Shown here in pieces: positions 1-62,147 of a stretch of DNA of 64,000 bases. Source of the stretch: an uncultured Acidobacteriaceae bacterium. Lineage in GTDB: Bacteria > Acidobacteriota > Terriglobia > Terriglobales > Acidobacteriaceae. The notes beneath the pieces were generated by a model that made no database searches, had not been told where the DNA came from, and was given only the letters and a program-made list of their open reading frames with translations. The translations under genes were made by a program, and so were the position numbers. Every line of letters begins with the position of its first letter. Position 1 is the first letter of the stretch. The stretch covers positions 414,863-478,862 of the forward strand of contig CAWIDA010000009.1 in assembly GCA_963834815.1 (NCBI GenBank), given 5' to 3'.

Positions 1-300
1 CGCCCGATCAAACGACAATCGGCCACCAACTTGTCATCCTGCGGATGGAAGAGCGCCTGGATGGTTAGCGTCCTGGGCTCGTTGCGATAGAACTTGAACG
101 GCGCCAGGAAGTTCACCTCTTCAATCGACTCGACATGCCAACCGGGGTGGACACAGACGGCGGCTTCTGCGAACGCCTCAATCCCCATCACTCCGGGCAA
201 CACCGGCGTGCCGTCGATACGGTGGTCATAGAGGAACGGTTGAGCGGCGGGGTCGAGCGTTGTCTCCATGGTCAGGCCACGACTGAGACTCATGCCGGTT
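1..300 (-). other. Dehydratase (hot-dog, PKS-type) domain, N-terminal part only
   Basis: PFLYDHRIDGTPVLPGVMGIEAF matches the HxxxGxxxxP motif (His codon 224-222). The domain continues past coordinate 1. Confidence 0.8.
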
Positions 301-3300: not shown

Positions 3301-6300
3301 AGGTCCAGATCCAGGTCCAGCATGTCTCTGGGATAGCCAGTTTTCTCCACTGCCAGATCGAGAATGCGTTCTTTCACCGCGTCACCAGCGGCCGACGATG
3401 CAGAAATCGTCTCGGGTACCAGCGAGGTGAGTTTGGTGTTTTCCGGTGGCTTGGTTACCGCCACGATTGGCGGCGCTGCGACGGCAGTGTCTGTATTTGG
3501 CCGGCGCTCATTCACAAAGCGAATCACATGGGCGAGCGTGGGGTAATCGCGCAGTTTGATCTGATCGTCACGCGCAATACCGTAGGCTTCGCGGATCGTG
3601 GCGAAGACCTCTGCCTGCTTGACGGTATCGACGCCCAAGTCGGCTTCGAGGTCGAGATCGAGATCGAGCATGTCGATGGGGTAGCCGGTTTTATCGGCCA
3701 CCAGCGCCAGCACCCGATCTTTCACTGATTCGGTAGAAGAGTTTGGTTTGGGCGGCGTGGCCGGTGCAACCGGCGCGGCCGCAACCACCTGAACTTGTGG
3801 TTCAACTTTCACCTGCTCTGCCTTCGGCTGCGGTGGCGCCGGCTTTACCGCGACGACTGCTGGCTTCGACGGGGGCGGCGGCGCCTGTACTGTTTGAGTC
3901 GGCGGCGGAATCGGTTTGACATCCTTCGCTGCCCCAGCAGCAACTCCGGCAACGCGGGCGGATAGGCCTTGATCACGCACGCGCAGGGTACGATTGACGA
4001 CTTCGAGATCCGCATCTGGACGGCCCGCTATTCTGGTCAGCCATGCGTCCCATGCCGGCTGATCGGCGACGCGGTAGGCATATCCTAGAGCATCCGGTCG
4101 GCGGCGAACTCCGTCCTTGGTTGGGATCCGACGCATCAGCGCCATGCTGATCTGTGAGCCAAAGCCCGCACCCAGTCGTAAGGCGTACTCGACGGGATAG
4201 TCGCCACCCTTTGCCAGATTCAACGAACCCAGTTCCGGATCGACTTCCTTGAAGTTGGGCACAGGAGGAACCACTCCCGTTTCCAGCACTTTCACCGCCA
4301 CCACTTCCTCGATACCAGTGGCCATGGCGTGGCCGGTGAAACCCTTGGTGTTGGCGATCACGATTTGGTCGGCAGTGTTGCCGAATACGCGACGCAGCGC
4401 GTTGATCTCCGCCGATGCGCTTCCGCCTCGAGCCGGCGTGTAGGTTTCATGGGAAACGAAGACGGTGTGTGGCGCGATCTGATGACGATCAATGCCGCTA
4501 TGCGCTTCGGCTTGCGCGATCAACGTCTCCATCACCTGGCCGATGTGCTGCACATCGAGGCGAGTGCCATGGAATGCACTGTTGGCAGTCACCGCGCCGA
4601 GCACTTCACAGATGGGCTGGATTCCACGCTCACGCGCGGCTTCGGCACTCTCAACAACGAGAGCCGCCGCACCCATACCGATGATCAAGCCGTGCCGCCG
4701 ACGATCGAAGGGAGTAGCGACCTCTTCGACTGCTGCATCAGTGGCGGCTGTTCCGCTGGCCAGGAAGCCCGCGCCAAACCATCCGATCAGGTGATCGGAA
4801 GTGACATCATCGGCCGTGATGATGATGACCCGGCTGCAGCGTCCGGCGCGGATCCAGTCCTGCGCCAGGCTGACGGCATGACTAGTGGTTGAGCAGGCGG
4901 AGTTGATTTGTGTGTTGGGACCGCGAGCGCCGATGAACTCGGCGAATTGCGAGTGCCCCATCGAGAGAGTCTTGAGCAGGAAGCGGCGGTCGAAGATATA
5001 GGGGTTCTTCTCAATCTCCGCGCGCAGTTCTTCGATCTTTCGGATTATCTCCTGGGCGAGGGGCGAATGGCCGTTGGTCCCTGCCACCGCTGCGACCATT
5101 TCCTCTAAGGAGGCTAGTTGCTGGCGACGGGCGTGGTCGGCATAGTACCGAGCCATCTCATCGGCGTACGCGTCGTAACCGGGAAAGGCCGAGCCAAAAA
5201 TTACGCCGGTATCGTCGCGCAGAGCATCCGGAAGCCCCCAGCGGTCGGGCAGCTGCGTGCCCTTGCTGGTGGTCTTGTAACGCATGACCAAGGGAATTCC
5301 CGCGTCGCGCATCGCTTCAATGCCGACTCCGATGGCAAGGCGAGTGACCTGATCGAGAGCGGCCACGCGCTCGGCGGAGACGCCGAATTCCTTTACCAAA
5401 TCGAAGGCGCCACCGCGACCCGCCAGCTTGATGACATCGGCAACGTCTTCAATGGTGTCGAATCTCGCCTCTCCGCTTTCACTCTTGACCAAACGCGTGA
5501 TGCGTTTGTCGAGCATGTCACGACGAAACTGGGAAGGGATGGGTTTGATGAACTGATCGCCCCGCAGAATTCGAGCGATATTGCCATCATCGAAGATGTG
5601 GTCGGTGCCCGGCAGGCCCATGGCTGCGCCAGTGATCGCCACAGGTTCGCCGGCAGATGGACTCTTCTGTCCGTGATAGATGTCCCAGCCGCGTTCCAGA
5701 ACGTCAGCGAAGAAGCGACCGAGTTCGGAATAGCGGTCGCCACTTGATGGAACGGTAAGTGCCACGCCAGGTGCCGGCGCTGCCGCTGCGACCAGCGCGG
5801 GAGTTTTCACCGCTGGATGAGCTGCTGCCGTGGCCACAACCTCAGGTGCGGGAACGCTGCTTGCCGGCGTTGCCGGCCTCGTCTCCTGCTGGATTGCGGC
5901 TGCATCCTTCTCGCATCCGAATCCCGCGGCATACAGCCCGCACAGCGCCTGGTTGAATGCCGCCAGGTCGTTGAGCTTGGGATGATTGGTGAACAGCGAA
6001 ATCACATCACCGCGCTCGCCCAGCACCTCCTCGGCAAACCCCTGCAACGCTTTCTTGGGTCCGACTTCCACAAATACGCGGGCGCCGGCATCGTAGAGCG
6101 ACTGCAAGCCTTTCACGAACTGCACCGGAGCCGCGACCTGCTGCGCGAGCAGATCGAGCATCTGGGGAACGACGTTCGGTCCGGTTGGATAGAACTCGCC
6201 ATTCACGTTCGCGACAACCGGCACCTGTGGTGGTTGAATCTGGAGGTGCGACAGCATCTCTCGCAACGGGGCGCTGGCGGGGGCGACAATCGAGGTATGA

Positions 6301-8759: not shown

Positions 8760-8829
8760 GATGGCATTTCCTTTTCGCGCGGGGCGGGCGCCTGTGCAGT
8801 GAGGAGAGGCAGACGCACGCCCCACGGTT

Positions 8830-15517: not shown

Positions 15518-15895
15518 GACTTCAACTCCTGCGAAGCTGCCTTTGCGACCCCCGCGGCAACTCTGTCTTTGATTATTACATCCGGCCTAATCATCCGAGG
15601 ATGTGACGAGCCGCACTGAGGTTGGTGATGGCTGCGACTAGGCCGCGAGCGTCTTGCCGTTCCCTTCTGCGTCGCCGATGAGTCTGCCGGCGGTAGCTCC
15701 CATTGTCACCACCACGACGGAAATAACATCGGGATTGTGACGCCTCTCACAGCACAGGTTGTCAAATCATGGGATTTTAGTATCGTCGGCCGGGCCGAGA
15801 TAGGCGTTGATCCGTTGCCCGCGGATTGGCTCTTTTCATGGATGCTCCATATCGAGCAGGCACAGCCGTCGGTCAGGCAAAGCAGGGGGAACGCC

Positions 15896-17557
15896 ATGTC
15901 GCAAGCTAGCCGGGTTGATTCACTTTCGTGGGGAGACACGTTCTTCCTGTTCATCGAGCGTGAGGGACAGCCACTGAACATCGCCTCCACTTGCGAGTTC
16001 GAGGGCGTAATTTCGCTGCAAGCGTTCAGAAAGTTTGTTGAGTCGAAGCTGGGCCTGATCCCGCGATACAAACAACGTGCGGTATTTCCGGCCTTCAACA
16101 TCAGTCTTCCAACCTGGGAGTTCGACCCGAACTTTGACATACGAAATCATGTTAATCAGGTCGTTCTCAAGGGTGGAACGGACAGCGATCTTAAAGAAAT
16201 CGCTGCCAGGATCATCAGCGAGCCACTGGACCGGCGTCGGCCGCTGTGGGACCTCACCCTGGTACGCGGTCTTAAGGGAAATCGAACAGGCTTGGTGTTC
16301 CGCATCCATCACTGCATGGCAGATGGGATATCCGGCGTCGGAATCATGAACGTCCTGTTGGACACGAGCCCGACTCCGCAAAAGCTGGCGGCGAAAAAGT
16401 CGGGCTCGGAAGAGCCGCGGCCGACCGACTCAGTTGCCTTGCTCCTCGATCAAGTGCTCCAGTCGTACCAGGCGTTCATGCAAGGGGCTGTAACGGCGCA
16501 AGCCGAAGTGGTGAATATCGTACGGGAGCTGCTCGCAGGCGCCACCAACGGCCACACGGACGACATTATTCATTTGGTGCCGGAACTTGGTACGCCCTCA
16601 CAGCGCCTGCCCTTCAACAAGGTATGCCGTGGTCCGCAAAGGATTGCGTGGGGCGAAATGCGAATGGCAGAAATTAAGGCCATTCGCGAGAGTTGCGGGG
16701 GCACGGTGAACGACGTGGTGCTCACCGTCATCACCTCGACGATTCGGCGCTACGCAGAATTGCACGGCGTGAAGGTCAGAGGACGGCATTTGAGGATTAT
16801 CGTTCCAGTAAACCTCCGCGGTAACGGCGACATCGGCGAATTGGGAAACCGCATTACGTTCTTGCCGATTAATGTGCCGCTCGACGTCCGCGACTCCCGT
16901 GCACTGCTAGCGCGAGTCAGTGAACGCATGGTCTTTCTCAGGAGCGTCGGAGTAGCGGACCTGGTCGGTCTGGTGGGTACACTGGTGTCGAAGATTCCGC
17001 TTCCCGCCCAAGCGGTCCTGGCACCATTGGCCACCCAGTTGCCGCTTAGCCTAAGCAACATGATCTGCACCAATGTTCCCGGCCCGCAGCTCCCGCTGTA
17101 CCTCCTCGGACATAAGATGTTGCGCTGCTACCCGTATGTCCCAATCGGCGGCGAGATGGGGGTGAATGTCGCGATTCTCAGTTATGACGGCGTCGCCTAC
17201 GTTGGGTTCGGGGGTGATATTCACGCCGTGCCCGATATCGATTGCCTTGAAGACCTCCTTCGCTCAAGCTTCACGGATTTACGGGAAGCCGCAACCGAAA
17301 AATCTGCCCCGACCAGCCGTGCTGCTGCCAGGTCAAAAGTCGAGGCTGCCACGCGGCGGGTGAAACTGCGGACGATCGCGATTTCGCCAGCAGCAAAGCC
17401 AGCGCGGAAGAAAGTACAGGCTGCCGAACCGGCGTCAAAGCAACCAACGCGTCAGACCTTGGCGACGAAACCGGCGGATCTCGTCCTACCAAAAATTAAG
17501 TCGGTTCCCGCAGCCGTGACCGTCCCGGAAACGGTGCTGTCGCAAGCGGGCGACTGA
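15896..17557 (+). CDS. Wax ester synthase / diacylglycerol acyltransferase (WS/DGAT) family protein with a basic Ala/Lys/Pro-rich C-terminal tail of about 95 aa
   Basis: Catalytic motif HHCMADGISG (HHxxxDG). I prefer ATG 15896 (AGGGGGA 5 nt upstream, MSQASRVDSLSWGDTFFL...) over the track GTG at 15737. The tail is ...SRAAARSKVEAATRRVKLRT..AAKPARKKVQAAEPASKQP... Confidence 0.88.
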   Translation: MSQASRVDSLSWGDTFFLFIEREGQPLNIASTCEFEGVISLQAFRKFVESKLGLIPRYKQRAVFPAFNISLPTWEFDPNFDIRNHVNQVVLKGGTDSDLKEIAARIISEPLDRRRPLWDLTLVRGLKGNRTGLVFRIHHCMADGISGVGIMNVLLDTSPTPQKLAAKKSGSEEPRPTDSVALLLDQVLQSYQAFMQGAVTAQAEVVNIVRELLAGATNGHTDDIIHLVPELGTPSQRLPFNKVCRGPQRIAWGEMRMAEIKAIRESCGGTVNDVVLTVITSTIRRYAELHGVKVRGRHLRIIVPVNLRGNGDIGELGNRITFLPINVPLDVRDSRALLARVSERMVFLRSVGVADLVGLVGTLVSKIPLPAQAVLAPLATQLPLSLSNMICTNVPGPQLPLYLLGHKMLRCYPYVPIGGEMGVNVAILSYDGVAYVGFGGDIHAVPDIDCLEDLLRSSFTDLREAATEKSAPTSRAAARSKVEAATRRVKLRTIAISPAAKPARKKVQAAEPASKQPTRQTLATKPADLVLPKIKSVPAAVTVPETVLSQAGD

Positions 17558-17627: not shown

Positions 17628-18383
17628 TCAGGACGCGTTCGTTAGTGCCTGGCGGGTCGCTTTCAGCGTATTGACCAGCGACTCCCGCGGAAGGCTCTTG
17701 ATGACAGGCTCGATGATCCACCCCAGACCAAACGGCACATCGCGAGTCAACGAAATGGCTCGGCACTCGACGATGACGCCGCTTTCTTCCTCCATGAACC
17801 TCCAGTAGGAATACAGGCGCCACAGGAAGCCGTATCCGGTATCGGGCGGGTAGATCTTCTCTTTCGCAGTTCCGGCATCGTCCACCTCGGCAATGCTGGT
17901 GGTGTACGAGCGACAGAACCACTGATCGTCGCGCGCTTGCTGGTAGTGCACATCGTGATAGGTATCCAGCACGACGGTGATGATCTTTTTCTTCAATAGG
18001 CGTAAGAAGATTTTGTAATCATCGCCATGATGGCTGATGAGCCGGGAGTCCATCACATCGGGCTCGTAAATGTTCTTGTGGTTGTCGTAGTCCTGAACGA
18101 GCGTGAGCGTCCGTCTGACGGTCGCCCCTGGTACGAATGCCGCCCCAACCCAGTCGTGGATTAGTCCGTTAGGAACCCGCACCGCCAGATCGCCCGACCA
18201 AAGTTGCGCCAGAACACTTCCATTGCGGACGCGACGGGCCCGATCAGCGTTCGTATCAGTCCACAGGAACGGAGCGCTTCCATCCCAGGTCGGTGCCATG
18301 TCCGCTTCCGCCTGGTCGATAAAAGACACAAACGCCTCCAGAGTTTCCGGCTTCAACTGCACGACACTCACGGTTTGCGTCAT
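17628..18383 (-). CDS. Hypothetical protein (251 aa), possibly an SRPBCC/START-like lipid-binding fold
   Basis: Clean ORF with GAGG about 11 nt upstream of the ATG and no signal peptide. The fold suggestion is only an impression from alternating beta-like segments and a C-terminal helix. No motif is recognised with certainty. Confidence 0.55.
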   Translation of the reverse strand: MTQTVSVVQLKPETLEAFVSFIDQAEADMAPTWDGSAPFLWTDTNADRARRVRNGSVLAQLWSGDLAVRVPNGLIHDWVGAAFVPGATVRRTLTLVQDYDNHKNIYEPDVMDSRLISHHGDDYKIFLRLLKKKIITVVLDTYHDVHYQQARDDQWFCRSYTTSIAEVDDAGTAKEKIYPPDTGYGFLWRLYSYWRFMEEESGVIVECRAISLTRDVPFGLGWIIEPVIKSLPRESLVNTLKATRQALTNAS

Positions 18384-18758
18384 TGGCGCTGGCCTCGTCG
18401 CATTCTCCTGAGGACCGGGGAAGTGGATCTCACGCGCTCGACGTGGTCGTCGATGAACTCCTTAAATCGGCGTCTCGCACAGTGTTGACTGAGAGGGACT
18501 TCTTGACACTGCCACCAACGGAGTTTGCCGGCGACGGCATCGAGAGCATTCTATCCTGCAAGTACTGAACCGGACTCTGCCTCCGCCGCGGTGCGCAAGC
18601 GTTTTCCCAAATTGGGCCGTATGCAAATCGGCCGAACTGAAACATCGGGTTGCGCGCAAGTGCCGTAGTGTCTGCGGGTTGCATTGTTCGGCGCCAGGGA
18701 TGCGCGCTAAGGAGTCTCCTCTCCGCTCCTGCTGCGCCGCAATATTTTTTCTTCCATC

Positions 18759-18787
18759 TTGACATGCAGACGGCGGAATACTACAGT
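18759..18787 (+). promoter_or_regulatory. Candidate sigma-70-type promoter for the repeat-protein gene
   Basis: TTGACA (18759-18764), a 17-nt spacer, then TACAGT (18782-18787). It is preceded by the A/T run AATATTTTTT, and the ATG is 40 nt downstream. Confidence 0.4.
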
Positions 18788-18826
18788 TCAGTTGGATGCT
18801 GCAGTGCAGCAAACGAGGAGGCAATT

Positions 18827-19747
18827 ATGAAACAAGATGCAAAGCCTGCGGTTCAGGCCCGGGAATCGTCCTTCGTTAATCTTCTTTCGGGATGGGTGCA
18901 GCAGGGAGTCGAGAACTTCTTTGCCACGCAGCGCATCCTGGTGGACCTGGCGATGCGCCAGAACGGGACGGTGATCGATGTCATGCGGGAGAAGCTGACC
19001 GCTCCCGATTTTCGGCCGGTCGCGATGGTCAAGGAGTTCGCGGGAGAGGGTCTGGCGAATTTCATCGAGGGCCAGAAGTTGCTTCTCGGGTTGGCCCAGA
19101 CGGAGAGCGAGATCCTGGCAACCGGGTTTAAGGAGCGGATCGGCGGATTGGTTGTTACCGATGCGCTGGTGGAAACCATTCGGCGCGGCGTTGACACTTT
19201 TGTCGAAATGCAGATGGATTACTTGAAGAGCGCAAGCAAGCAGGTGCATGGGCGCCTGGCCGCCGTGAAAGCCGGCGAAGAGTATGAAGGCGATAGCCTG
19301 GTCGACCTGGCTCGCGAGGGACTGGAGAATTTCGTGCAGGCGCAGAAGAAATTCCTCCATGTCGTTGCCGAGGAGACGTCCAAGGTGACCGGCGGCAAAG
19401 AGACCACAGTGAGCAAGATGAAAAAGACGGAGCTTACCGAATTGGCGCGTGAGGCGGCAGATTCGTTCATCGACGCCCAGAAGAAGTTGATGGACGTCGC
19501 TGCGCGGCAGATCCATGTCACCCTTAAGACCGCCGGACATGCGGCCAAGCTGATGCCGGAAGTTCCCTACCGGGACATTCCGGACCTGACTCGTGAAGGC
19601 TTCAGAAGCTTCGTCGAAGCCGAGAAGGCCGTGATCGAGTCCGTAACCAAAAGGCCGGAAATGAAAATGAGGAAGGCTCCGATGAAGGGTGCACGTCGTG
19701 GAAAACGCACCGCACCCAAACCTCGGACAATTCCAGTCACTGCCTAG
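18827..19747 (+). CDS. Six-repeat amphipathic-helix protein (phasin / lipid-droplet-coat-like) with a strongly basic C-terminal tail
   Basis: Perfect SD GAGGAGG lies 6 nt upstream of ATG 18827. Six units of about 46 aa share the core G-x-x-x-F-x-x-x-Q (QGVENFFATQ, EGLANFIEGQ, RGVDTFVEMQ, EGLENFVQAQ, EAADSFIDAQ, EGFRSFVEAE). The conserved Phe is at aa 31, 79, 125, 169, 214 and 262. The tail is MRKAPMKGARRGKRTAPKPR. Confidence 0.8.
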   Translation: MKQDAKPAVQARESSFVNLLSGWVQQGVENFFATQRILVDLAMRQNGTVIDVMREKLTAPDFRPVAMVKEFAGEGLANFIEGQKLLLGLAQTESEILATGFKERIGGLVVTDALVETIRRGVDTFVEMQMDYLKSASKQVHGRLAAVKAGEEYEGDSLVDLAREGLENFVQAQKKFLHVVAEETSKVTGGKETTVSKMKKTELTELAREAADSFIDAQKKLMDVAARQIHVTLKTAGHAAKLMPEVPYRDIPDLTREGFRSFVEAEKAVIESVTKRPEMKMRKAPMKGARRGKRTAPKPRTIPVTA

Positions 19748-19810
19748 TCCTGGGAATTGAGAAGTCGGCGTTTCTCCGGCTGCGAGGTGAGGACGGGGTT
19801 GAGCGACATT

Positions 19811-19850
19811 GGTCGTTCCGTTGCGTTGGCAGCGGAACGACCCATTTCTT
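19811..19850 (+). terminator. Candidate intrinsic terminator after the repeat-protein gene
   Basis: 10-bp stem GGTCGTTCCG (19811-19820) / CGGAACGACC (19833-19842) with a 12-nt loop, followed by the T-rich CATTTCTTCC. Confidence 0.45.
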
Positions 19851-19895
19851 CCGCTTGCCACTTACCGAGGCGCGCATGTACGAGAGGAAGAAGAA

Positions 19896-21152
19896 ATGGA
19901 AAATGCGCTCGGTTTAGTAATGACGGGGGGAGGGGCTCGGGGCGCCTATCAGGCTGGCGTTCTCAAGCGCATTGGTGAGATACCTCGCGTCCAGGCGCAT
20001 GGCAATCCCTTCCCGATCATTGGAGGCTCTTCCGCCGGCGCGGTGAATGGATGCGCTCTCGCGGTTGGGTGCGACGAATTTTCCATCGCCACTAAGATTC
20101 TTGCGAAGCTCTGGTCAGAGCTGCGACCTACCGATATTTTCCGCTGTGATGTTTTTGCCCAGGCGCGTAATTCGATTACGTGGATCCTGGACCTCTCCTT
20201 CGGCGCAGTTCTGGGCGGAGGCAATGCAAGGTCGTTGCTGGACGCGTCTCCGTTGCGGCACTTTCTCCGTTCCCATCTTGATTGCGATCGCATCCAGTCG
20301 AACATTAAGCGGGGTTATCTTTACGCGCTCGCCATTTCCGCGACCAACTACAACTCCGGCAAGAGTTACCTGTTCATTCAAGGCGTGAAGGGCCATCCCA
20401 TGTGGAATCGCAGCCGGCGGGTCACGCTGGCTACGAAGATCACAACCGACCACGTTTGCGCGTCGGCGGCGATTCCCCTGGTCTTTCAGCCCGTGCGGCT
20501 CAAAACGGCCCGAGGCACGGCATTTTTTGGGGACGGCTGTCTGCGTTTGCAGCAACCGTTGAGCCCGCTTATTCGTTTGGGTGCGGAGCGAGTCTTCGGT
20601 ATTGGGGCTCGCGGCCAAAGTCTCGAACACCAGGAAGAAACCTCCGATGAGACCGAGCCTTCATTGGCTCAGGTGATGGGAGTCATCTTCAACGTAATGT
20701 TCCTGGACCATCTGGCTACGGACATCGAGCACCTCGATCGCCTGAACAAGCTGCTTCGCGAAGGCCAGATCAGCCAGACGGGCATCGAAGGATGCGAAAG
20801 GATGCGCCCGCTGGCTACGTTTCTTATTACGCCTTCTATCGATCTCTCAGAACTGGCGCGGCAACACCAGAAAGACATGCCGTACCTGATCCAGTACTTC
20901 GTAAACGGATTGGGACGGGATGCAGCGTCGTGCTCCGACCTGATGAGCTACCTGCTCTTCACGCCCAAATATACCCGTGCGCTTATCGACATTGGGTACA
21001 ACGACGCCCACCGGCGAATCGACGAGATCGAGGACTTTCTATTCGCTTCCGGCGAAGGCGGCAGCCCTTTAAACGGCATCGAAGCGGCCAAGTCAAAACC
21101 GCCTGGCGTATCGAGCAAACGGCCATCGAGCCCCGTCAAGTCAAGCAGTTGA
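19896..21152 (+). CDS. Patatin-like phospholipase / lipase
   Basis: GLVMTGGGARGAYQAGVL (oxyanion GGxR), GGSSAGAVNG (GxSxG) and FFGDGCL (the Asp of the Ser-Asp dyad). I prefer ATG 19896, with GAGAGGAAG upstream. Confidence 0.88.
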   Translation: MENALGLVMTGGGARGAYQAGVLKRIGEIPRVQAHGNPFPIIGGSSAGAVNGCALAVGCDEFSIATKILAKLWSELRPTDIFRCDVFAQARNSITWILDLSFGAVLGGGNARSLLDASPLRHFLRSHLDCDRIQSNIKRGYLYALAISATNYNSGKSYLFIQGVKGHPMWNRSRRVTLATKITTDHVCASAAIPLVFQPVRLKTARGTAFFGDGCLRLQQPLSPLIRLGAERVFGIGARGQSLEHQEETSDETEPSLAQVMGVIFNVMFLDHLATDIEHLDRLNKLLREGQISQTGIEGCERMRPLATFLITPSIDLSELARQHQKDMPYLIQYFVNGLGRDAASCSDLMSYLLFTPKYTRALIDIGYNDAHRRIDEIEDFLFASGEGGSPLNGIEAAKSKPPGVSSKRPSSPVKSSS

Positions 21153-22519: not shown

Positions 22520-22894
22520 CTACCCCTTTCCTAGAAATACCAGGGTGACACCAATGCACACTAAGATGATGCCGGTCCAGCGCCGCAGGCTTAAGCGTTC
22601 GCCAAGGAAGAACTTTCCCCCGAGGGCCCCGGCGACGTAGCTCAGCGCCGTGACCGGAACCACAAAGCTGACCTCTTCAATGGACAGTACCGCCAACAAC
22701 GAGAAAAATGCCAGTGTCATCATGCCAACGCCGACCCACATCCACTTGACCCGCAAGGCCCGCCCGATGACCTTCACAATCGCTACGGGGCGAAAGTCTT
22801 TGACTTCGCCGGTTTGTTTCATCGCCCGCGAGACACAAAGCTCACCGGCCGTCCCTGCTACCACGATCAGGAAGAAATAGATGAACTTGATCAT
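22520..22894 (-). CDS. Half-size EamA/DMT family transporter subunit (124 aa, 4 TM)
   Basis: Typical EamA C-terminal motif GERLSLRRWTGIILVCIGVTLV. It overlaps the upstream paralog by 4 nt (22891-22894). Confidence 0.8.
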   Translation of the reverse strand: MIKFIYFFLIVVAGTAGELCVSRAMKQTGEVKDFRPVAIVKVIGRALRVKWMWVGVGMMTLAFFSLLAVLSIEEVSFVVPVTALSYVAGALGGKFFLGERLSLRRWTGIILVCIGVTLVFLGKG

Positions 22895-23364
22895 GGTTGA
22901 TGGTGCTCCGTGGTGCGAGGGTTAGTCCGGCCGACGATGAAGACACCGAGACAGATGATCGCGATACCTGTCCACCTCAGCGGCGACACGGTCTCGCCCA
23001 ACAAGAAAATCGACAGCAAGGCGACAACACCATAGGCCATCGACGATGCGGGCTGGACAAAACTATAGTCCGCCCAGGAGAGAACCAGGATGTTGGCGAC
23101 GAAGAATGTCAGCAGTGAAGCCACCCCCAGCCAGATCGCGGTGGTCGTGAACACCCGCTCGACCACATGCGCAAGGTCCGCGGGAGAGGTGATCGCTGTG
23201 TTTCCGACGCTCTTCATGCCTTTGCCCAGCATTACGTTCCCCAAAGGACCAGCAATGATCATGATCAGGATCATGACGAAAGTCTTGAAATGAAGCGGCG
23301 TGTGAGAATCCATCAGGCTCCTGGACTCGAAGGCCGCGGCGAACGGTAAGGGATCATAGAACAA
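22891..23364 (-). CDS. Half-size EamA/DMT family transporter subunit (about 140-157 aa, 4 TM)
   Basis: Motif GETVSPLRWTGIAIICLGVFIV. The start is ambiguous between 23364 and 23313. Confidence 0.78.
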   Translation of the reverse strand: MFYDPLPFAAAFESRSLMDSHTPLHFKTFVMILIMIIAGPLGNVMLGKGMKSVGNTAITSPADLAHVVERVFTTTAIWLGVASLLTFFVANILVLSWADYSFVQPASSMAYGVVALLSIFLLGETVSPLRWTGIAIICLGVFIVGRTNPRTTEHHQP

Positions 23365-23688
23365 TGCTATAACACCGTTCCCCGTGTCCGAACAAGATTA
23401 CCTATACTTGTAATTCGGGCTCGGCACCGTACTACCGTGAGGCGGGCGGCGTGTTAATGCCTAGGAAAACGCCTCCCTCTAAGGCTTCGGTTCGCCTCGA
23501 TGCGGGGATGCGAATACAATGCCATGCTGTCTGGGCCCCCTTTGCGGAGAAGAAAGGACAAAAAGGACAAAGATGTGTTGCTTTCTGTCGTGAGCGACGA
23601 GAAGACTCGGTCGCTGGGACAATTGAGAAAGATCGGCTAAAATGACTGCAAATCTCATATCTGGCTGATAGAGCGGAGTGCCACAACT

Positions 23689-24576
23689 GTGTTTAGCCAC
23701 ACCGAAAGTGAGGCAATCATAAGGATGTATACGGACATGCAATGGTTCAGGCTTTGGGGGCGCCGAACCCGTTTGGGTTTAGTCACAACAGTTTCTCTGG
23801 CCCTTACTACTACCGTGCTCCTGGCGCCGCATGTCCCGTTAGGAAGCGCGTATCATGACTTTGCCGACAAGCGAACCATCTTGGGAATACCAAATTGCCT
23901 CGACGTATTATCAAATGTTCCTTTCATAATTGTGGGAGCGTGGGGAGTATTCTGGCTTCAGCGAAGACTGAGCAATAGTTCGTTTGTTGTGCGGCAGGAG
24001 CGGGTTCCATATTTGTTTTTTTTCGCGGGCGTTGGACTCACCGGTGTCGGTTCCTTCTGGTATCACTTGGCTCCTGGGAATTCTCGTCTTCCGTGGGATC
24101 TTCTGCCCATTGCCTGTTGCTTCATGTCAATGCTTGCAATCGTAATCATTGAGCGAATCAGCACGAGCGCCGGATTCTGGGTGTTTGTTCCTTTGCTTGC
24201 TCTTGGAGTCGCAAGTGTCGTCTCCTGGTATTACACCGAAGCACAAGGCCACGGCGACTATCGTTTTTATCTCGCCGCGCAATTCCTTCCGCCTATATTG
24301 GTGGCCATGATCATCGCCTTCTTCCCGGGTCGTTACACACGCACCGACTACTTGGCCATCGCCTTCTTCTTATACGTACTGGCAAAGATTTTTGAACGCT
24401 TCGACAATCAGATATATTCGGTGCTCGGTGTGAGCGGCCATTCGTTGAAGCATTTGACAGCCGCTGTTTCCTGCTACTGGATATTGAGAATGCTGCAGCA
24501 GCGACGGGCGGTCAAGGGTGTCGGTAAAGATGGTGTAAGGCTACATTTCCTCGATCACGAAGACCAGACTATTTGA
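23689..24576 (+). CDS. Polytopic membrane protein, alkaline-ceramidase-like family
   Basis: About 7 hydrophobic helices. N-terminal YHDFADKRTILGIPNCLDVLSNVPF, FWYHLAP, and an HxxxH in the last helix (GHSLKHL). The family call is from memory of the ceramidase/PAQR-like motif pattern. The start is ambiguous (GTG 23689, ATG 23725 or 23737). Confidence 0.6.
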   Translation: MFSHTESEAIIRMYTDMQWFRLWGRRTRLGLVTTVSLALTTTVLLAPHVPLGSAYHDFADKRTILGIPNCLDVLSNVPFIIVGAWGVFWLQRRLSNSSFVVRQERVPYLFFFAGVGLTGVGSFWYHLAPGNSRLPWDLLPIACCFMSMLAIVIIERISTSAGFWVFVPLLALGVASVVSWYYTEAQGHGDYRFYLAAQFLPPILVAMIIAFFPGRYTRTDYLAIAFFLYVLAKIFERFDNQIYSVLGVSGHSLKHLTAAVSCYWILRMLQQRRAVKGVGKDGVRLHFLDHEDQTI

Positions 24577-24591
24577 TCAATCGAACCGCTT

Positions 24592-25596
24592 TTGCAAGGA
24601 GGCCTCTTGAAAGTAGCCTTACTATCGCTATTGGTCTGTCCCACGTGCTGCAATAGTTTCGAAGCTCGCGTGGATCACAGCGACGGCGCGGAAATCATTG
24701 AGGGGTTACTCCTATGTGCAGGCTGTGGTTCTAATTATCCAATCACCCGAGGCGTCCCACGCTTCCTCATGGGTACACTAGCGAGTGATCAGAAGGCCAC
24801 AGTGGATGCCTTCGGCTACGAATGGACACACTTCTCGAAATTCACAGACGCCGACAGTAGAGAATTTCTTGGCTGGATCTCGCCTCTCACACCGGCCGAT
24901 TTTGAGGACCGCGTTGTTCTTGATGCGGGCTGTGGCAAAGGGCGGCATATCTTCCTGGCTGCTCAATTTCGGGCCCGCACTGTTGTAGGCATCGACCTGT
25001 CAAACGCCGTCGACGCCGCGTACCAGAACACCCGCCATCTGCCCAACGTGCACGTCGTCCAGGCGAGCATCTCGCATCTGCCTTTTGCAAACCCTTTTGA
25101 CTTGGCCTATAGCGTCGGCGTACTGCATCATCTTCCTGTTCCTAGGGAAGGTTTTCTCGCGTTGACAGAACACGTCAAGTCAGGTGGTCGAATCTCGATC
25201 TGGGTGTACGGGAAGGAAGGGAATCTTTGGATTGAGAAGCTAGTCGACCCTATTCGCAAGAATGTCACTTCACGATTGCCAAGACTGATTACCCGTTGTG
25301 TCTCGTTCTTCCCGGCATCGATACTCTACATTGCACTGAAGATTCTCTACCGCCCTGCACAGCGCATGCCATGGCTAAAGCGATTGTTGCCCTATTCTGA
25401 TTATCTTTGCTCTATATCCGACTACTCTTTCGCAGAGAATTTCTGGAATGTATTCGATCAACTGGTGGCGCCCACCGCCTTTTATATCAGCCAGGGAGAA
25501 GTTGCCGATTGGTTTGTATTTGCCAAGATACGGGAAACCAAGATTTCGCGTCACAATAGCAACAGTTGGCGAGGAACTGGTTTGATTCCGCAGTAG
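24592..25596 (+). CDS. Class I SAM-dependent methyltransferase with an N-terminal Trm112-like zinc ribbon
   Basis: CPTC..(x)..CAGCGSNYPITRGVPRF followed by VLDAGCGKGRH (SAM motif I). The start is TTG 24592 or TTG 24607 (AAGGAGG at 24596-24602). Confidence 0.85.
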   Translation: MQGGLLKVALLSLLVCPTCCNSFEARVDHSDGAEIIEGLLLCAGCGSNYPITRGVPRFLMGTLASDQKATVDAFGYEWTHFSKFTDADSREFLGWISPLTPADFEDRVVLDAGCGKGRHIFLAAQFRARTVVGIDLSNAVDAAYQNTRHLPNVHVVQASISHLPFANPFDLAYSVGVLHHLPVPREGFLALTEHVKSGGRISIWVYGKEGNLWIEKLVDPIRKNVTSRLPRLITRCVSFFPASILYIALKILYRPAQRMPWLKRLLPYSDYLCSISDYSFAENFWNVFDQLVAPTAFYISQGEVADWFVFAKIRETKISRHNSNSWRGTGLIPQ

Positions 25597-26007
25597 CAAC
25601 TTCGCGGTGATCACCAATCTGTGGAAGTAAACCTCGAAGAAGGTGCTGCAGTGTCTCCGCGAGAAGTGGGCTCGATCAATACCGCGCCCTAAAAACGAAC
25701 TCGGGGGCGGAGTGATGCCTTTCGGAGGGTTCCGGGCTAACGCCGCTAATATCCAGTCCCCCCATTCAGTACGTATCTATTTACGGACAGATTACGACGG
25801 ATAGTCACCTGCCTTCATCATTGATATAGTGCAAGCAGTGCTCGCGGTTCGTCCAGGCTGGTCTCCAGCCCGCTCCGCCGCGGCCAGTCTCCGATGCCGA
25901 CTGGAAACCAGACTCGCTTCAGCCTGTTAGATACCGGATTTCGACGCGGTCTCCCAGCGGATGGGGGTGTAGAACCCCGTTCCGGCGGTTTGATCAGTCG
26001 GACAAAT

Positions 26008-27810
26008 ATGCTAATGGACCGCAGCGTTTGGGGCATCTATCTCGTTGTACTCCTGTTCGCGACAGCAATTTACCTCGGCTGCATCATCTCTCCGCCGTCG
26101 CTGCAAGACGATGTGGATGCGGAGCAGGCTCAGAACGCGCGAAACATGCTCACGTCGGGCGACTGGGTCACGCAGCGCCTAGATGGCGTCATTTTTCTCG
26201 AGAAACCGCCGCTGATTTACTGGCTGATCGCCATCAGCTACGAAGTCTTCGGGGTGCACGATTGGGCCGCGCGCGTCCCTATCGCACTGTCGGCAATTGC
26301 ACTTTGCTGGTTGACCACGGCGTTTGGAATTTGGGCGTTCGGCAGGCGAGCCGGCTTCTATGCCGGTCTATGCATGGCGACGTGCGTCGGGCTATGGCTG
26401 TTCACGCGCGTTCTGATTCCCGACGTCACATTAACCTTCACGGTCGCTCTGGCCATGTGGGCGCTGCTGCGAGTTCTTGATGACGAGGAACCCCGGCCCC
26501 GGTTGTGGGCGTTTCTACTGGCGGCTAGTCTCGGCGCCGGACTGCTGCTGAAGAGTCTCATTGGCGTGGTGTTTCCGGTGGCGGCCGGGATAATTTACCT
26601 GGCCGTCACGCGACAGCTTTTTGTGGCTCGGACCTGGAAGCGTCTGCATCCGTTCGCAGGGACGCTGATCATTCTTCTCATCGCCGTGCCTTGGCATGTT
26701 CTGGCAACACTGCGCAACCCTCCTTACTTCGACTTTACGCTACGCAGCGTTCCGGGAGAGTACCACGGCTTCCTCTGGTTTTTCTTCATCAACGAGCAGT
26801 TGCTTCGCTTCCTGAACCTGCGCTACCCGCGCGACTACAACACCGTTCCCCGCCTTTACTTCTGGCTGTTTCACCTGGCCTGGCTGTTTCCATGGAGCGT
26901 CTACTTCCCCGCCGTGGTGAAGTTGTCTTACAAACCAGAAGACCGCGCCGGCAGGACTCGTCTGCTTGCCTTGTGCTGGATTGGCTTCATTCTGGTCTTC
27001 TTCACCTTCTCCACCACGCAGGAGTATTACTCGATGCCCTGCTACCCGGCGATGGCCTTGTTACTGGGCTCGGCAATGGCGGCGGGTGGCCAGTGGATCT
27101 CCAGAGGCACCCGCGTCTTGAGTGTCGTTGCAGGATGCGCCGCAGCCGCAATGATAGCCATCCTGGTGCTAGTGCGTAACGTGACAGTCGTCGGGGATAT
27201 TTCTTCAGCTCTTAGCCAGCACCCGGAAGCTTACACGCTCTCGCTCGGCCACATGGAGGACCTAACGGTGCGATCCTTCGCGTACCTTCGCCTTCCGCTG
27301 GCGGTGGCTGCATTGGCATGTTGCATCGGCATGCTCGGCACGTTTCGTGCACAGGGCCGGCGGGCTTTCATCGCTGCCGCCGTAATGATGCTCTTATTCT
27401 TTCATGCCGGCCGTTTAGCCATGGTCGACTTCGATCCCTTCTTATCTTCGAAGCAGTTTGCGGACGTGCTCGAGCGCTCACCTGAGGGAACGCTGATCGT
27501 GGACCATCATTATTACTGGTTTTCCTCGGTGTTCTTTTACACCAACCGGACGGCGTTGCTGTTGAACGGCCGATTCAACAACCTTTTGTATGGTTCGTAT
27601 GCTCCCGGCGCGCCAGACGTGTTTATCGATGATGCCAAGTTTAAGGAACTTTGGAGTAGTCCCGCGCTGAAATATTTAGCTACGCGGGATGAGGCGCTTC
27701 CCCGTCTGAAGGGCTTGGTGGGCACTGAGAACCTGCACCTGGTCACCGCGGGCGGAGGCAAAGTTCTCATGGCCAATCATGCCATTGCCGTCGAAAAAGC
27801 CCAACCGTGA
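26008..27810 (+). CDS. GT-C fold glycosyltransferase, family 39 / ArnT-PMT-like (polyprenyl-phosphate-sugar dependent)
   Basis: About 12 hydrophobic helices. The first-loop motif is DDVDAEQAQNARNMLTSGDWVTQRLDGVIFLEKPPLIYWL, typical of ArnT/PMT_2 enzymes. I prefer ATG 26008. Confidence 0.85.
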   Translation: MLMDRSVWGIYLVVLLFATAIYLGCIISPPSLQDDVDAEQAQNARNMLTSGDWVTQRLDGVIFLEKPPLIYWLIAISYEVFGVHDWAARVPIALSAIALCWLTTAFGIWAFGRRAGFYAGLCMATCVGLWLFTRVLIPDVTLTFTVALAMWALLRVLDDEEPRPRLWAFLLAASLGAGLLLKSLIGVVFPVAAGIIYLAVTRQLFVARTWKRLHPFAGTLIILLIAVPWHVLATLRNPPYFDFTLRSVPGEYHGFLWFFFINEQLLRFLNLRYPRDYNTVPRLYFWLFHLAWLFPWSVYFPAVVKLSYKPEDRAGRTRLLALCWIGFILVFFTFSTTQEYYSMPCYPAMALLLGSAMAAGGQWISRGTRVLSVVAGCAAAAMIAILVLVRNVTVVGDISSALSQHPEAYTLSLGHMEDLTVRSFAYLRLPLAVAALACCIGMLGTFRAQGRRAFIAAAVMMLLFFHAGRLAMVDFDPFLSSKQFADVLERSPEGTLIVDHHYYWFSSVFFYTNRTALLLNGRFNNLLYGSYAPGAPDVFIDDAKFKELWSSPALKYLATRDEALPRLKGLVGTENLHLVTAGGGKVLMANHAIAVEKAQP

Positions 27811-29160
<1,350 letters not shown>

Positions 29161-29246
29161 CATACTGGTCCGACCGGGAGAGTGCTTTGGATGCGGCGCT
29201 GAGCCGCCGTTCTACTCGCAGCGTCTATAGTAGCTTATGAACGGAT

Positions 29247-29426
29247 CTAGAGCTGTTTAGGAATCAGTGTGATGCTCGGGACGCTGGACAAAGCCGCGTA
29301 GCGGCGCCATCTGTTTTAGCCGCGGGCGTAAGCCCGCGGTCCGAATCTATGAATTCTCGCGGAGCCGGCTTCAGCCGGCGGCACCTCTTGTTCCTTCCCC
29401 GTAAACCATTTCCTAAACCGATCTAG
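29247..29426. repeat. Hairpin-rich intergenic element with imperfect terminal inverted repeats (REP/MITE-like), copy A
   Basis: Terminal IR: CTAGAGCTGTTTAGGAATC (29247-29265) versus the reverse complement of ATTTCCTAAACCGATCTAG (29408-29426), 15/19 matches. Internal hairpins are GCCGC-GTA-GCGGC, CCGCGGGC-GTAA-GCCCGCGG and GCCGGC-TTCA-GCCGGC. It shares the blocks AGCCGCGTAGCGGCG and GAGCCGGCTTCAGCCGGCGGCA with the element at 56742-57067, at the same spacing of about 70 nt. Confidence 0.6.
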
Positions 29427-30595
29427 CTGGCCACGCTGCTTGCGGCCACGGGCACCAACTCGCCATTCCGAATGTAGTAGTCGCGATCGCGCCAGCGAAT
29501 GGTGCTGCGGGTAAAGCTCGCCAGCCAGATCACGAAAGCCATGGCGTCCCAGACGGGAATTAACGCCAAACCCTGCCATGGTACGGGTTGCTTCAGCCCC
29601 CAGGACGCGACCTGCAACGTCATAGCGACGCGCAGGCCGAGATAAGCTGCGAGAAAGGCGCCCGCCACGGCCACGGTCGGCGAAATCGCGATCGCGGCCA
29701 ATGACCATGGCAATCCCAGCGTAAAGACCAGGCCCACATGCCCCCAGGGACGCATGTGACGCATCACGACGATCCAGCGCAAGCGCTTTAGAAACAGATC
29801 GCGCAGCGATTGAAAGTCCGCCACCGTCAGCACCGTATACGGGATGAGCTTCACTTCATAGCCCTGCTCCGCGATTAACCGTCCCACCAGCAGGTCGTCC
29901 GCCGGACGGTTCTCGATCATCTCGTAGCCACCGAATCCAGCCAGGCGTGCCCGAGAGGTGGCGATGGTTGGTCCGAGCGCGAACTTCACCCCGTCCAATT
30001 GCCACGCCACCACGATTCCAGGGTAGAAGTCGGAATACATGCCAATGGTTTGCAGCTTCTGCACCAGGGTCTCCTCATCGGTTGGCGCGTAGAAGCAAGT
30101 TACTGCACCCACTTGGGGATCAGCCAGCGGAGCCACTACAGTGCGCAGGTACTCAGGTTCGGCGCGCACATCGCTGTCGTTGATGACGAGTATTTCGTAT
30201 CGCGCCTCTTTGGCGAGTCGCGCTAACTTCGCTACCTTGTCGTTCGTGGCCGCGCGTCCCGAACCGAAGAGCACGCGAATGCTTCGTTCAGGAAAGTCGG
30301 CGATCACCTTCTCTATGATCGGCAAGACGGGGTCAGAGCGATCACCTACACAAAAGACGATTTCGTATTCGGGATAATCCTGGCAGCAGAAACTCGCAAA
30401 ATTCTCGTAGGCGTCAGGATCAAGTCCCCTCACCGGCTTCAAAATGCTTACCGGCGGAGTGAAGACTGGTTGTGCAGCAGGCTCCCTGGCCGAGAGGGTA
30501 AAGAACCGCCATGCGCTGAACAGCGCTATACCATAGTAAATAAAAGGGATGGCGGCAATTACCAGCATCAGATACAACAGCGGCCACGAATCCAT
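29423..30595 (-). CDS. Membrane glycosyltransferase, GT2 superfamily / GT21-like (ceramide glucosyltransferase / HpnI-like)
   Basis: N-terminal TM helix, PPVSILKPVRGLDPD, VINDSDV (a DxD-like motif) and LKRLRWIVVMRH ((Q/R)xxRW-like). The pattern matches HpnI / glucosylceramide-synthase-like enzymes, from memory. Confidence 0.8.
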   Translation of the reverse strand: MDSWPLLYLMLVIAAIPFIYYGIALFSAWRFFTLSAREPAAQPVFTPPVSILKPVRGLDPDAYENFASFCCQDYPEYEIVFCVGDRSDPVLPIIEKVIADFPERSIRVLFGSGRAATNDKVAKLARLAKEARYEILVINDSDVRAEPEYLRTVVAPLADPQVGAVTCFYAPTDEETLVQKLQTIGMYSDFYPGIVVAWQLDGVKFALGPTIATSRARLAGFGGYEMIENRPADDLLVGRLIAEQGYEVKLIPYTVLTVADFQSLRDLFLKRLRWIVVMRHMRPWGHVGLVFTLGLPWSLAAIAISPTVAVAGAFLAAYLGLRVAMTLQVASWGLKQPVPWQGLALIPVWDAMAFVIWLASFTRSTIRWRDRDYYIRNGELVPVAASSVAS

Positions 30596-30687
30596 TCCAC
30601 CTCTCGGGTAAATACAGCCGTCACTTTATTATCGCTGGTTGCGCCGAATATGCAACGGAAAGACGACTGTGCCGGGATCATCAGTGC

Positions 30688-30720
30688 AAAAAAATCGGGC
30701 ACTCGTAAAGAGTGCCCGAT
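30688..30720 (-). terminator. Intrinsic terminator of katG
   Basis: 11-bp stem ATCGGGCACTC (30694-30704) / GAGTGCCCGAT (30710-30720) with a GTAAA loop. On the minus strand it is followed by a T7 run (the A-run at 30688-30694, whose last A can also pair). Confidence 0.7.
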
Positions 30721-30748
30721 AGCTAGCTAATCAGTGGCTGTGCCAAGC

Positions 30749-33524
<2,776 letters not shown>

Positions 33525-33535
33525 ACTTTAAGGAT

Positions 33536-33550
33536 GAGAATGATTATTAG
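33536..33550. promoter_or_regulatory. Candidate Fur/PerR box in the fur leader
   Basis: GAGAATGATTATTAG. Its reverse complement AATAATCATTCT matches 10/12 positions of the GATAATCATTAT part of the classical Fur-box consensus. It lies 12 nt upstream of the fur start. Confidence 0.35.
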
Positions 33551-33706
33551 ACGATGCAGATTATTTTCTGATCGGGGATACGAAAAATAGGCATATCGCC
33601 CCTCACGGCCCAAGCTCAACCGGCAGCCCCGGCTCAGGTCACCGCCACGACTGTCTTAGTTCGAGAAAACTGGGTAACGAAATCGCGTCTCCCGCATCTT
33701 ACATAC

Positions 33707-54914: not shown

Positions 54915-55041
54915 TGTATAGACCGAAGGGGTAGGACTCTCTCAGGTTATGGGGCGCACAGAATCACTGTCAAGGCGAAGCAGATCGCGTCCGTCGGTAA
55001 GCTAGAATACGTGTAGCACCTCTCTAGCATCTGCCGATCCT

Positions 55042-56745: not shown

Positions 56746-57067
56746 AGCGTTTTCAGAATTGGTGTAGCCGGGGAGGACGAGTAGAGCGGCGCTTCAGAGG
56801 CTGTTACGAAACTGCGCTGACTCCGTTGAGGGTGGAACAAATGCCACGAATCGCTGGGCGAACGAGCCGCGAAGCGGCGGCTTTGCTTCTAGCCCGGGGT
56901 GCAAACCCCGGGATAGTGGGAAAAATGTTGGAGCCGCGTAGCGGCGACAGAAGTTTCGTAACAGCCTCTTCAGCGCCCCGTCTCAGGCAGTCCCTAGAGT
57001 CGAGCCGGCTTCAGCCGGCGGCAGCTCTTGGTCCCTTGCCCTGACACTATTTCCTAAACCACTCTAG
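56742..57067. repeat. Hairpin-rich intergenic element (REP/MITE-like), copy B, with a nested 26-nt inverted repeat
   Basis: Outer IR: CTAGAGCGTTTTCAGAATT (56742-56760) versus the reverse complement of ATTTCCTAAACCACTCTAG (57049-57067), 13/19 matches. Inner IR: 56788-56813 versus 56952-56977, complementary at 24/26. The inner IR encloses three small hairpins (56866-56878, 56893-56912, 56933-56945). It shares sequence blocks with copy A. Confidence 0.6.
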
Positions 57068-57070
57068 CCG

Positions 57071-58867: not shown

Positions 58868-58984
58868 TATCGCAGGTAACTTCAGGATGGACGCTCGTGA
58901 CCCACATCGCTTCCGGCGTAACAGACCGCGGCTATAACTTGCATGCGGGGCGAGGGCGATGGTAAGTAGGACCTGAATCCAGGG

Positions 58985-62106: not shown

Positions 62107-62147
62107 TATAACGTTATAACGCTCATTATAACTTTCGTTAAATTGGA

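Follow-up and report, generated by a model that had tools for sequence, protein, structure and literature searches.

A conserved gene set around UDP-sulfoquinovose synthase in Terriglobia and its candidate sulfo-hexosyl membrane lipid

Introduction

Which acceptor receives sulfoquinovose when the gene for its activating enzyme lies between genes for two membrane glycosyltransferases? The question is raised by a stretch of 64,000 nucleotides from an uncultured Acidobacteriaceae bacterium (contig CAWIDA010000009.1), referred to here as the window. It contains sqdB, predicted to encode UDP-sulfoquinovose synthase, together with genes for a GT-C glycosyltransferase of the PMT_2/ArnT type, a membrane glycosyltransferase of family GT21 and two half-size EamA transporter proteins. 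An earlier note on this DNA had likened the set to the late steps of the lipid A aminoarabinose (Arn) pathway. In that proposal GT21 charges a polyprenyl phosphate with sulfoquinovose, the EamA proteins flip the product and GT-C transfers the sugar; the alternative offered was a glycolipid made directly by GT21. All five genes were confirmed at the coordinates in Table 1, and family searches agree with the identities the note had given them. Its claim that the window holds no sulfolipid synthase of the SqdX, SqdD or SQD2 type is likewise borne out by a Pfam scan of the window's open reading frames (ORFs, about 45), which also found no glycosyltransferase besides GT-C and GT21.

The region is most likely the local copy of a module that is conserved across the class Terriglobia and makes a sulfo-hexosyl membrane lipid. 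In the specific form that we favor, SqdB and GT21 would directly make a beta-sulfoquinovosyl membrane lipid, probably on bacteriohopanetetrol, and the EamA pair and GT-C would act in the periplasm in the same pathway. We give this specific form somewhat less than an even chance. Direct synthesis by GT21, the alternative of the earlier note, thus now appears more likely than the Arn-like route that it had put first.

Results

Conservation of the gene set

The GT-C protein was scanned against one genome per species, which yielded 80 loci (69-81% identity). They belong to Acidobacteriaceae, Bryobacteraceae, Acidiferrales, Sulfotelmatobacter and subdivision 2, and each of the nearest relatives is an Acidobacteriota assembly. 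Related loci that were compared are labeled with L-numbers (L001 and so on). Within 10 kb of the GT-C gene, SqdB is encoded in 71 of the 80 loci, GT21 in 69 and the EamA pair in 63-64 (the homologue of 22891-23364 in 63, that of 22520-22894 in 64). The outer flanking genes of the window are found within the same distance in only 5 loci. The 80 loci fall into 29 distinct gene orders, and in 56 of them the GT-C gene is directly followed, on its own strand, by the gene for the sulfo-enzyme (median gap 163 nt). Co-directional orders include GT21-EamA-EamA-AsnB-GT-C-SqdB and SqdB-AsnB-GT-C-GT21. The grouping of sqdB, GT-C, GT21 and EamA genes is far beyond chance, and the neighborhood is not accidental. 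Because the set is kept across 29 orders, and all of its parts are interleaved in some co-directional runs, we argue that the genes are functionally linked. Synteny in related genomes was a check proposed in the earlier note, and sqdB, the GT-C and GT21 genes and the EamA pair are indeed conserved together, often in one direction.

A further component recurs outside the window's own lineage, from which it is missing. ORF clustering showed that in 64 of the 80 loci, among L006-L080, the GT-C gene overlaps at its start with a gene for a glutamine amidotransferase of the AsnB type (for example L077:8007-10016). The closest NCBIfam model to this protein is the XrtA/PEP-CTERM amidotransferase, at 513 bits, below its cut-off. 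GT21 is the sole glycosyltransferase that recurs near the GT-C gene in the 80 loci, and neither the window nor the recurrent genes of these loci include ArnA, ArnB, ArnC or ArnD. When pairwise distances are compared among GT-C, SqdB and GT21, the correlations are all about 0.85, a level that fits vertical co-inheritance and does not separate the models considered below.

Exchange of sqdB and GT21 for a sulfotransferase cassette

Loci L005, L032 and L082-L084 have, in the slot of sqdB, a gene of a different family that encodes a protein of 248 amino acids (aa) (L005:11983-12729, L032:11975-12721, L082:12008-12754). The DNA of L005 runs collinear with that of its sibling L002 (86% identity) until position 11647 of L005, close to where the GT-C gene ends. 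Collinearity is then lost across the genes for the sulfo-enzyme and GT21, with the two GT21 sharing just 66% identity, and returns at 84%. The L005 GT21 groups with its L032 counterpart and apart from those of the siblings of L005. The possibility that the 248-aa gene is a remnant of sqdB was rejected, as BLASTP shows no similarity between the two.

The 248-aa protein has no match in Pfam or NCBIfam, and a single-sequence search of solved structures was also empty. Its family has 303 members of 227-248 aa; the best 120 of the 303 are named only "hypothetical protein" or are unnamed. A profile of the family has heparan sulfate 6-O-sulfotransferase as its sole significant match (E 0.0028), with the N-terminal IHVPKAAGNSF aligned to the loop that binds 3'-phosphoadenosine 5'-phosphosulfate (PAPS). 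An AlphaFold model of the protein (predicted local distance difference test score, pLDDT, 88) matches heparan sulfate 2-O- and 6-O-sulfotransferases (E 2e-6, probability 1.0). Profile and fold together indicate that the family is a putative PAPS-dependent carbohydrate sulfotransferase. Since sqdB with its GT21 and the sulfotransferase with a divergent GT21 are interchangeable in one slot, the selected product appears to be a lipid-bound sulfo-sugar, a sulfo-hexose that carries either a C-sulfonate or an O-sulfate.

The sulfotransferase and GT21 genes also occur as a pair with no GT-C or EamA gene within 9-10 kb, on long contigs in L087 and L089-L092, and an adenosine 5'-phosphosulfate (APS) kinase gene adjoins the pair in L087, which adds to the identification of the sulfotransferase. 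The pair is likewise alone in metagenome loci L105, L107, L112, L121, L123, L127 and L129, while other loci have the full set or a GT-C gene 1.4-3.3 kb off. If these genes supplied no more than a donor intermediate for GT-C, one would expect them to accompany the GT-C gene, and the stand-alone pairs therefore favor a finished glycolipid as the product of GT21. A different arrangement was seen in L156 (460-2401; also in L155), where an SqdB-like gene (61% identity) lies 83 nt downstream of a gene for a more distant sulfotransferase family member. There is no glycosyltransferase gene near that pair; genes for Hsp20, Lon and a full-length EamA protein follow.

Family placement of SqdB and GT21

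The SqdB of the window aligns over residues 2-383 with Arabidopsis SQD1 (1QRR; E 3e-190). Two catalytic-site stretches, GTMGEYG and a second one of 13 residues, are identical to those of SQD1, whose catalytic residues we take to be a Thr-Tyr-Lys set and an adjacent His. On the NCBIfam model for UDP-sulfoquinovose synthase (NF041015) the protein scores 495.6 bits, under the cut-off of 575. We weighted the SQD1 match above this shortfall, and consider the protein a predicted UDP-sulfoquinovose synthase.

GT21 has HpnI, the hopanoid glycosyltransferase, as its best named family. The alignment with the HpnI model (TIGR03472; 296.9 bits, cut-off 310) spans the full length, and the protein shows 42% identity to a genuine HpnI, the second paralogue of L076. 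The best solved relative is human ceramide glucosyltransferase (E 8.9e-25). A crenarchaeal GT2 enzyme also stands at the top of that search, and no chain of dolichyl-phosphate mannose synthase (DPMS, DPM1), GtrB or ArnC is among its top rows. Residues D85/D88, D140-S-D142, D233/D234 and K270-x-x-R273-W274 align with the D1, D2, D3 and (Q/R)xxRW positions of ceramide glucosyltransferase and are invariant in 29 GT21 orthologues. These motifs typify GT2/GT21 enzymes that glycosylate hydroxyl groups. A hydropathy scan places one hydrophobic segment at the N-terminus and further ones towards the C-terminus. An AlphaFold model built from a shallow alignment (78-100% identity) was of low confidence (pLDDT 47). 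From the family matches, GT21 is probably a paralogue of HpnI and not an enzyme like ArnC or DPM1.

The placement checks that the earlier note had proposed thus give an HpnI-like GT2-superfamily enzyme and a GT-C enzyme that is nearest to ArnT among solved structures. The role it had assigned to GT21, an ArnC-like enzyme charging polyprenyl phosphate, finds no support in the full-length HpnI match, the ceramide glucosyltransferase motifs, the stand-alone pairs with the sulfotransferase or the gene context described next.

Hopanoid gene context

Three loci (L046, L052 and L076) place the module inside a hopanoid gene context, in the order hpnJ, EamA, AsnB, GT-C, SqdB, two small genes, GT21, EamA, EamA, hpnI. 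The flanking hpnJ (709.7 bits, cut-off 577.6) and hpnI (337 bits, cut-off 310) are genuine; in L076, a locus of an Acidiferrales lineage, they lie at 5689-7191 and 17872-19116. The earlier note had named a conserved hpn context for GT21 as a point against its Arn-like proposal. Such a context is present in these three loci, while the window and the other 77 loci have no hpn genes nearby.

A survey of hopanoid genes found hpnI and hpnJ matches in subdivision 1 and 3 Acidobacteria, with hpnK absent (PMC5462960), which fits an HpnI-like enzyme that does not use N-acetylglucosamine (GlcNAc). In a recent preprint, matches to the HpnI model are confined to genomes that also have squalene-hopene cyclase (SHC) and HpnH. 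The SHC motif was not found across the related loci scanned.

Between sqdB and the GT21 gene, the lineage of L046, L052 and L076 has a 249-aa gene with no family match and a gene for an FAD-dependent oxidoreductase. The latter is also present in L006, L007, L009, L020, L028 and L053.

The GT-C enzyme and the EamA pair

In a search of solved structures with the GT-C protein, ArnT (5EZM) is the sole relative (E 2.3e-29). The protein has at least 10 hydrophobic segments in a hydropathy scan, and the motifs SPPSL-DD and LEK-P are invariant across 78 orthologues. Its LEKPP aligns with FEKPP of ArnT, such that LEK-P is the counterpart of ArnT E84/K85. An acidic DD pair lies in the first periplasmic loop, with the exact counterpart of ArnT D55 one column off. 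On the NCBIfam ArnT model (NF009784) the protein scores 89.1 bits against a cut-off of 567. It is therefore best described as a predicted relative of ArnT, not an orthologue. To our knowledge, GT-C enzymes use only lipid-phosphate-linked donors, and the enzyme would be predicted to act on the periplasmic face with such a donor.

The two EamA genes overlap by ATGA, and their products have 3 and 4 hydrophobic segments in a hydropathy scan, the product of 22891-23364 having 4. That gene is called from 23313 in the source record, which gives a protein of 140 aa. ArnE is the only named small transporter that the halves match, at 21.9 and 22.2 bits against a cut-off of 92. Their likeness to ArnE/ArnF, put forward in the earlier note, therefore holds for size and for the paired half-size layout but not for the score on the ArnE model. 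We consider the pair candidate flippase subunits for a lipid-linked sugar or a glycolipid.

Proposed pathway and alternatives

The pathway that we favor would begin with SqdB, which by homology would form UDP-sulfoquinovose. At the cytoplasmic face, GT21 would then move the sulfoquinovose, with inversion, onto a hydroxyl group of a membrane lipid, most likely in the bacteriohopanetetrol side chain. In this scheme sqdB and the GT21 gene would form a two-gene cassette, exchanged in some relatives for the putative PAPS-dependent sulfotransferase and its divergent GT21. Flipping of the anionic glycolipid into the periplasmic leaflet would fall to the EamA halves. GT-C, the ArnT-like enzyme, in most relatives together with the AsnB-type amidotransferase, would act periplasmically on the same pathway, perhaps by adding another sugar whose polyprenyl-phosphate donor would come from elsewhere.

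Several points weigh against this scheme. Its weakest step is the last one, where GT-C is given no defined reaction and needs a donor-sugar synthase encoded elsewhere. GT21 stays just below the HpnI cut-off in every copy of the module tested (257-300 bits, the range of nine copies besides that of the window). In the window and in 77 of the 80 loci, hpn genes are missing from the surrounding 10 kb. Diacylglycerol, ceramide-like lipids and polyprenyl phosphate are also possible acceptors, among which sequence cannot tell. No sulfo-hopanoid was found in the literature searched, part of that search being poorly targeted. Finally, a GT-C enzyme, a flippase-like pair and a single cytoplasmic glycosyltransferase make up the layout of three-component periplasmic glycosylation systems.

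That layout underlies the reading in which GT21 charges polyprenyl phosphate with sulfoquinovose, the EamA pair flips the product as ArnE/ArnF would, and GT-C transfers the sugar to a periplasmic acceptor such as lipid A, the lipopolysaccharide (LPS) core, a hopanoid, a protein or a polysaccharide. For the sulfotransferase-bearing relatives, O-sulfation of a lipid-linked hexose would precede flipping. No other reading assigns a defined role to each conserved gene. This one draws on the donor preference of GT-C enzymes, on ArnT as the sole solved relative with its E84/K85 positions kept, and on the ArnE match of the EamA halves. The co-directional six-gene orders, in which an EamA-EamA-AsnB-GT-C block is flanked by GT21 on one side and sqdB on the other, speak for it too, as does the finding that no ArnC-like gene lies beside the GT-C genes that lack the cassette (L018 and L079). 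We keep it in consideration because GT21 is the only cytoplasmic glycosyltransferase that recurs by the GT-C gene and the flippase-like pair. Against it stands the membership of GT21 in the HpnI/ceramide glucosyltransferase family, with the corresponding set of motifs and with no polyprenyl-phosphate enzyme of the DPMS, GtrB or ArnC type in the top structure rows; we know of no GT21-family enzyme that uses a polyprenyl phosphate acceptor. The pairs of sulfotransferase and GT21 that stand alone in several genomes, with neither GT-C nor EamA, also disagree with it, and so does the GT-C gene of L005, which keeps its 86% DNA identity across a cassette swap that alters the sugar chemistry. On balance this reading is possible but less likely than direct synthesis. 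The same holds for its narrower version, in which GT21 was recruited as a polyprenyl-phosphate sulfoquinovose synthase, GT-C sulfoquinovosylates lipid A, the LPS core or a hopanoid after flipping by EamA, and the C-sulfonate and O-sulfate cassettes are interchangeable; we rate it a minority possibility.

A phosphate-free anionic glycerolipid is a less probable product, and we regard it as improbable. Here the acceptor of sulfoquinovose from GT21 would be diacylglycerol, or else an ether or membrane-spanning glycerolipid of Acidobacteria. The result would be a beta-linked analogue of sulfoquinovosyl diacylglycerol (SQDG) made with no SqdX or SQD2, and GT-C and the EamA pair would serve in export or merely be co-regulated. 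GT21-family enzymes that glycosylate diacylglycerol are known from rhizobia, and the missing SqdX-, SqdD- and SQD2-type enzymes agree with such a product. A few kb away on the upstream side, the window and its nearest relatives have genes for a wax ester synthase/diacylglycerol acyltransferase (WS/DGAT) and a patatin, but these neighbors are found in only 5 of the 80 loci. The closest named family of GT21 is HpnI, over the full length, and hpnJ and hpnI flank the module in three loci, which points away from a glycerolipid. Least probable, and in our view rather remote, are two unrelated functions side by side, with a sulfolipid made by SqdB and GT21, another envelope component modified with a different sugar by the EamA, AsnB-like and GT-C proteins, and a neighborhood that was simply inherited. 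Each block does occur alone in some genomes (L018 and L079 for one; L087 and L089-L092 for the other), and the distance correlation agrees with plain vertical co-inheritance. However, the outer flanks are not conserved while the set is, some of the 29 orders interleave both blocks in one co-directional run, the sulfo-enzyme gene directly follows GT-C in most loci, and the sulfotransferase cassette sits in the same slot.

Comparison with known systems

HpnI is the bacteriohopanetetrol N-acetylglucosaminyltransferase of the hpnIJK set. The GT21 of the window matches it over the full length, shares 42% identity with an acidobacterial HpnI and has the same membrane topology, and in three related loci GT21 lies between hpnJ and hpnI. 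It differs in scoring below the curated cut-off and in its partner, which is SqdB or the sulfotransferase and not the deacetylase HpnK. No hpn genes are near the window's GT21, and its donor would be anionic sulfoquinovose instead of GlcNAc. With the late Arn steps (ArnC, ArnE/ArnF and ArnT) the module shares an ArnT-like GT-C, an overlapping EamA pair of ArnE/ArnF size, a membrane GT2-superfamily enzyme and an enzyme that forms a sugar nucleotide. Unlike Arn, its GT2-superfamily enzyme is GT21/HpnI-like, ArnA, ArnB and ArnD are missing, scores on the ArnT and ArnE models are far under their cut-offs, and the sugar is a sulfonate.

SQDG synthesis, by SqdB or SQD1 followed by SqdX or SQD2, has the same first enzyme, to judge by the near full-length SQD1 match. 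The partner in the module is an inverting GT21 instead of a retaining GT4, from which a beta linkage would be expected in any product, with diacylglycerol an improbable acceptor. The animal glycosphingolipid and sulfatide route offers another parallel, since relatives of the window pair a ceramide glucosyltransferase-like GT21 with a sulfotransferase of the heparan sulfate 2-O/6-O fold, once together with APS kinase. The module is bacterial, however, and the likeness is one of logic and fold, not of orthology.

No relevant paper emerged from literature searches that combined sulfoquinovose or sqdB with Acidobacteria, ArnT, hopanoids, undecaprenyl or lipopolysaccharide. The module, its lipid and its pathway were not found described in the literature searched, and every part comes from a known family. 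In soil, Terriglobia rank among the most abundant bacteria, and little is known of the lipids in their envelopes. A conserved route for placing a permanently charged sulfo-sugar on a membrane lipid, or onto the envelope by way of a lipid carrier, would, if confirmed, be a new use of sulfoquinovose beyond SQDG and archaeal N-glycans. If the acceptor is bacteriohopanetetrol, the product would be a new class of composite hopanoid and would explain hpnI-like genes that occur without hpnK. It may bear on acid tolerance, phosphate sparing, the interpretation of hopanoid biomarkers and sulfoquinovose in the soil sulfur cycle. The swap between C-sulfonate and O-sulfate enzymes amounts to a natural experiment, in which the sulfo group itself appears to be selected. 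Were the Arn-like proposal to be true, it would imply a lipid-linked sulfoquinovose donor and a bacterial periplasmic sulfo-glycosylation, neither of which was found described in the literature searched. The module is widespread in dominant soil bacteria, and its product is directly testable.

Organization of the locus

The genes form three transcription units, not the two divergent units that the earlier note had described. GT21 converges on sqdB, and a strong terminator-like hairpin at the katG end (30720-30694, minus strand) separates it from katG transcription. No terminator-like site was found between the GT-C gene and sqdB.

Table 1. Coordinates of the module genes and of the elements between them in the window
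Feature	Coordinates	Strand	Description
Half-size EamA protein, second of pair	22520-22894	-	124 aa; Pfam EamA 32.2 bits
Half-size EamA protein, first of pair	22891-23364	-	157 aa from TTG, 140 aa from ATG at 23313; Pfam EamA 26 bits (cut-off 28.2)
Insertion: ceramidase/CREST-like protein and Trm112-fused S-adenosylmethionine (SAM) methyltransferase	23329-26035	+	Lineage-specific, accessory to the conserved core
GT-C glycosyltransferase, PMT_2/ArnT type	26008-27810 (alternative ATG 25894)	+	600 aa; Pfam PMT_2 69 bits
Predicted UDP-sulfoquinovose synthase SqdB	27946-29160	+	404 aa; match to Arabidopsis SQD1
Acido-Lenti-1 RNA motif (hairpin)	29292-29339	-	Rfam RF01687, 40.1 bits (gathering score 37)
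Membrane glycosyltransferase, GT21 family	29423-30595	-	390 aa; Pfam Glyco_transf_21 116.9 bits (cut-off 21.7)

The insertion between the EamA pair and the GT-C gene has no counterpart in the closest relatives, L001, L003 and L085, where its flanks are contiguous and the EamA pair and the GT-C gene are immediate divergent neighbors. Its GC content is 0.51-0.52, against 0.585 for the window. It encodes a ceramidase/CREST-like membrane protein (23689-24576), with a sub-threshold match to Pfam Ceramidase (27.2 bits), and the Trm112-fused methyltransferase (24592-25596), whose methyltransferase domains are clear in Pfam. L029 and L032 have methyltransferase homologues in this slot, and in L141 another is found near the sulfotransferase gene. 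The Acido-Lenti-1 hairpin, the only Rfam match in the scan, did not turn up in six related loci that were checked; situated between the convergent sqdB and GT21 genes, it is probably a local element outside the core.

A second insertion relative to the same three relatives (30665-33670) lies between GT21 and a DUF1223 gene and carries katG and a PerR-like regulator. Upstream of the module, the neutral-lipid genes are those for the WS/DGAT (15737-17557) and the patatin-like lipase (19809-21152), with two ORFs of no family match between them, a neighborhood common only to L001-L005. Over positions 1-8800 of the window the longest ORF is at most 211 aa. At the other end (53322-63962), three paralogous FG-GAP/ASPIC (UnbV) repeat proteins are encoded among large TPR proteins and an amidase.

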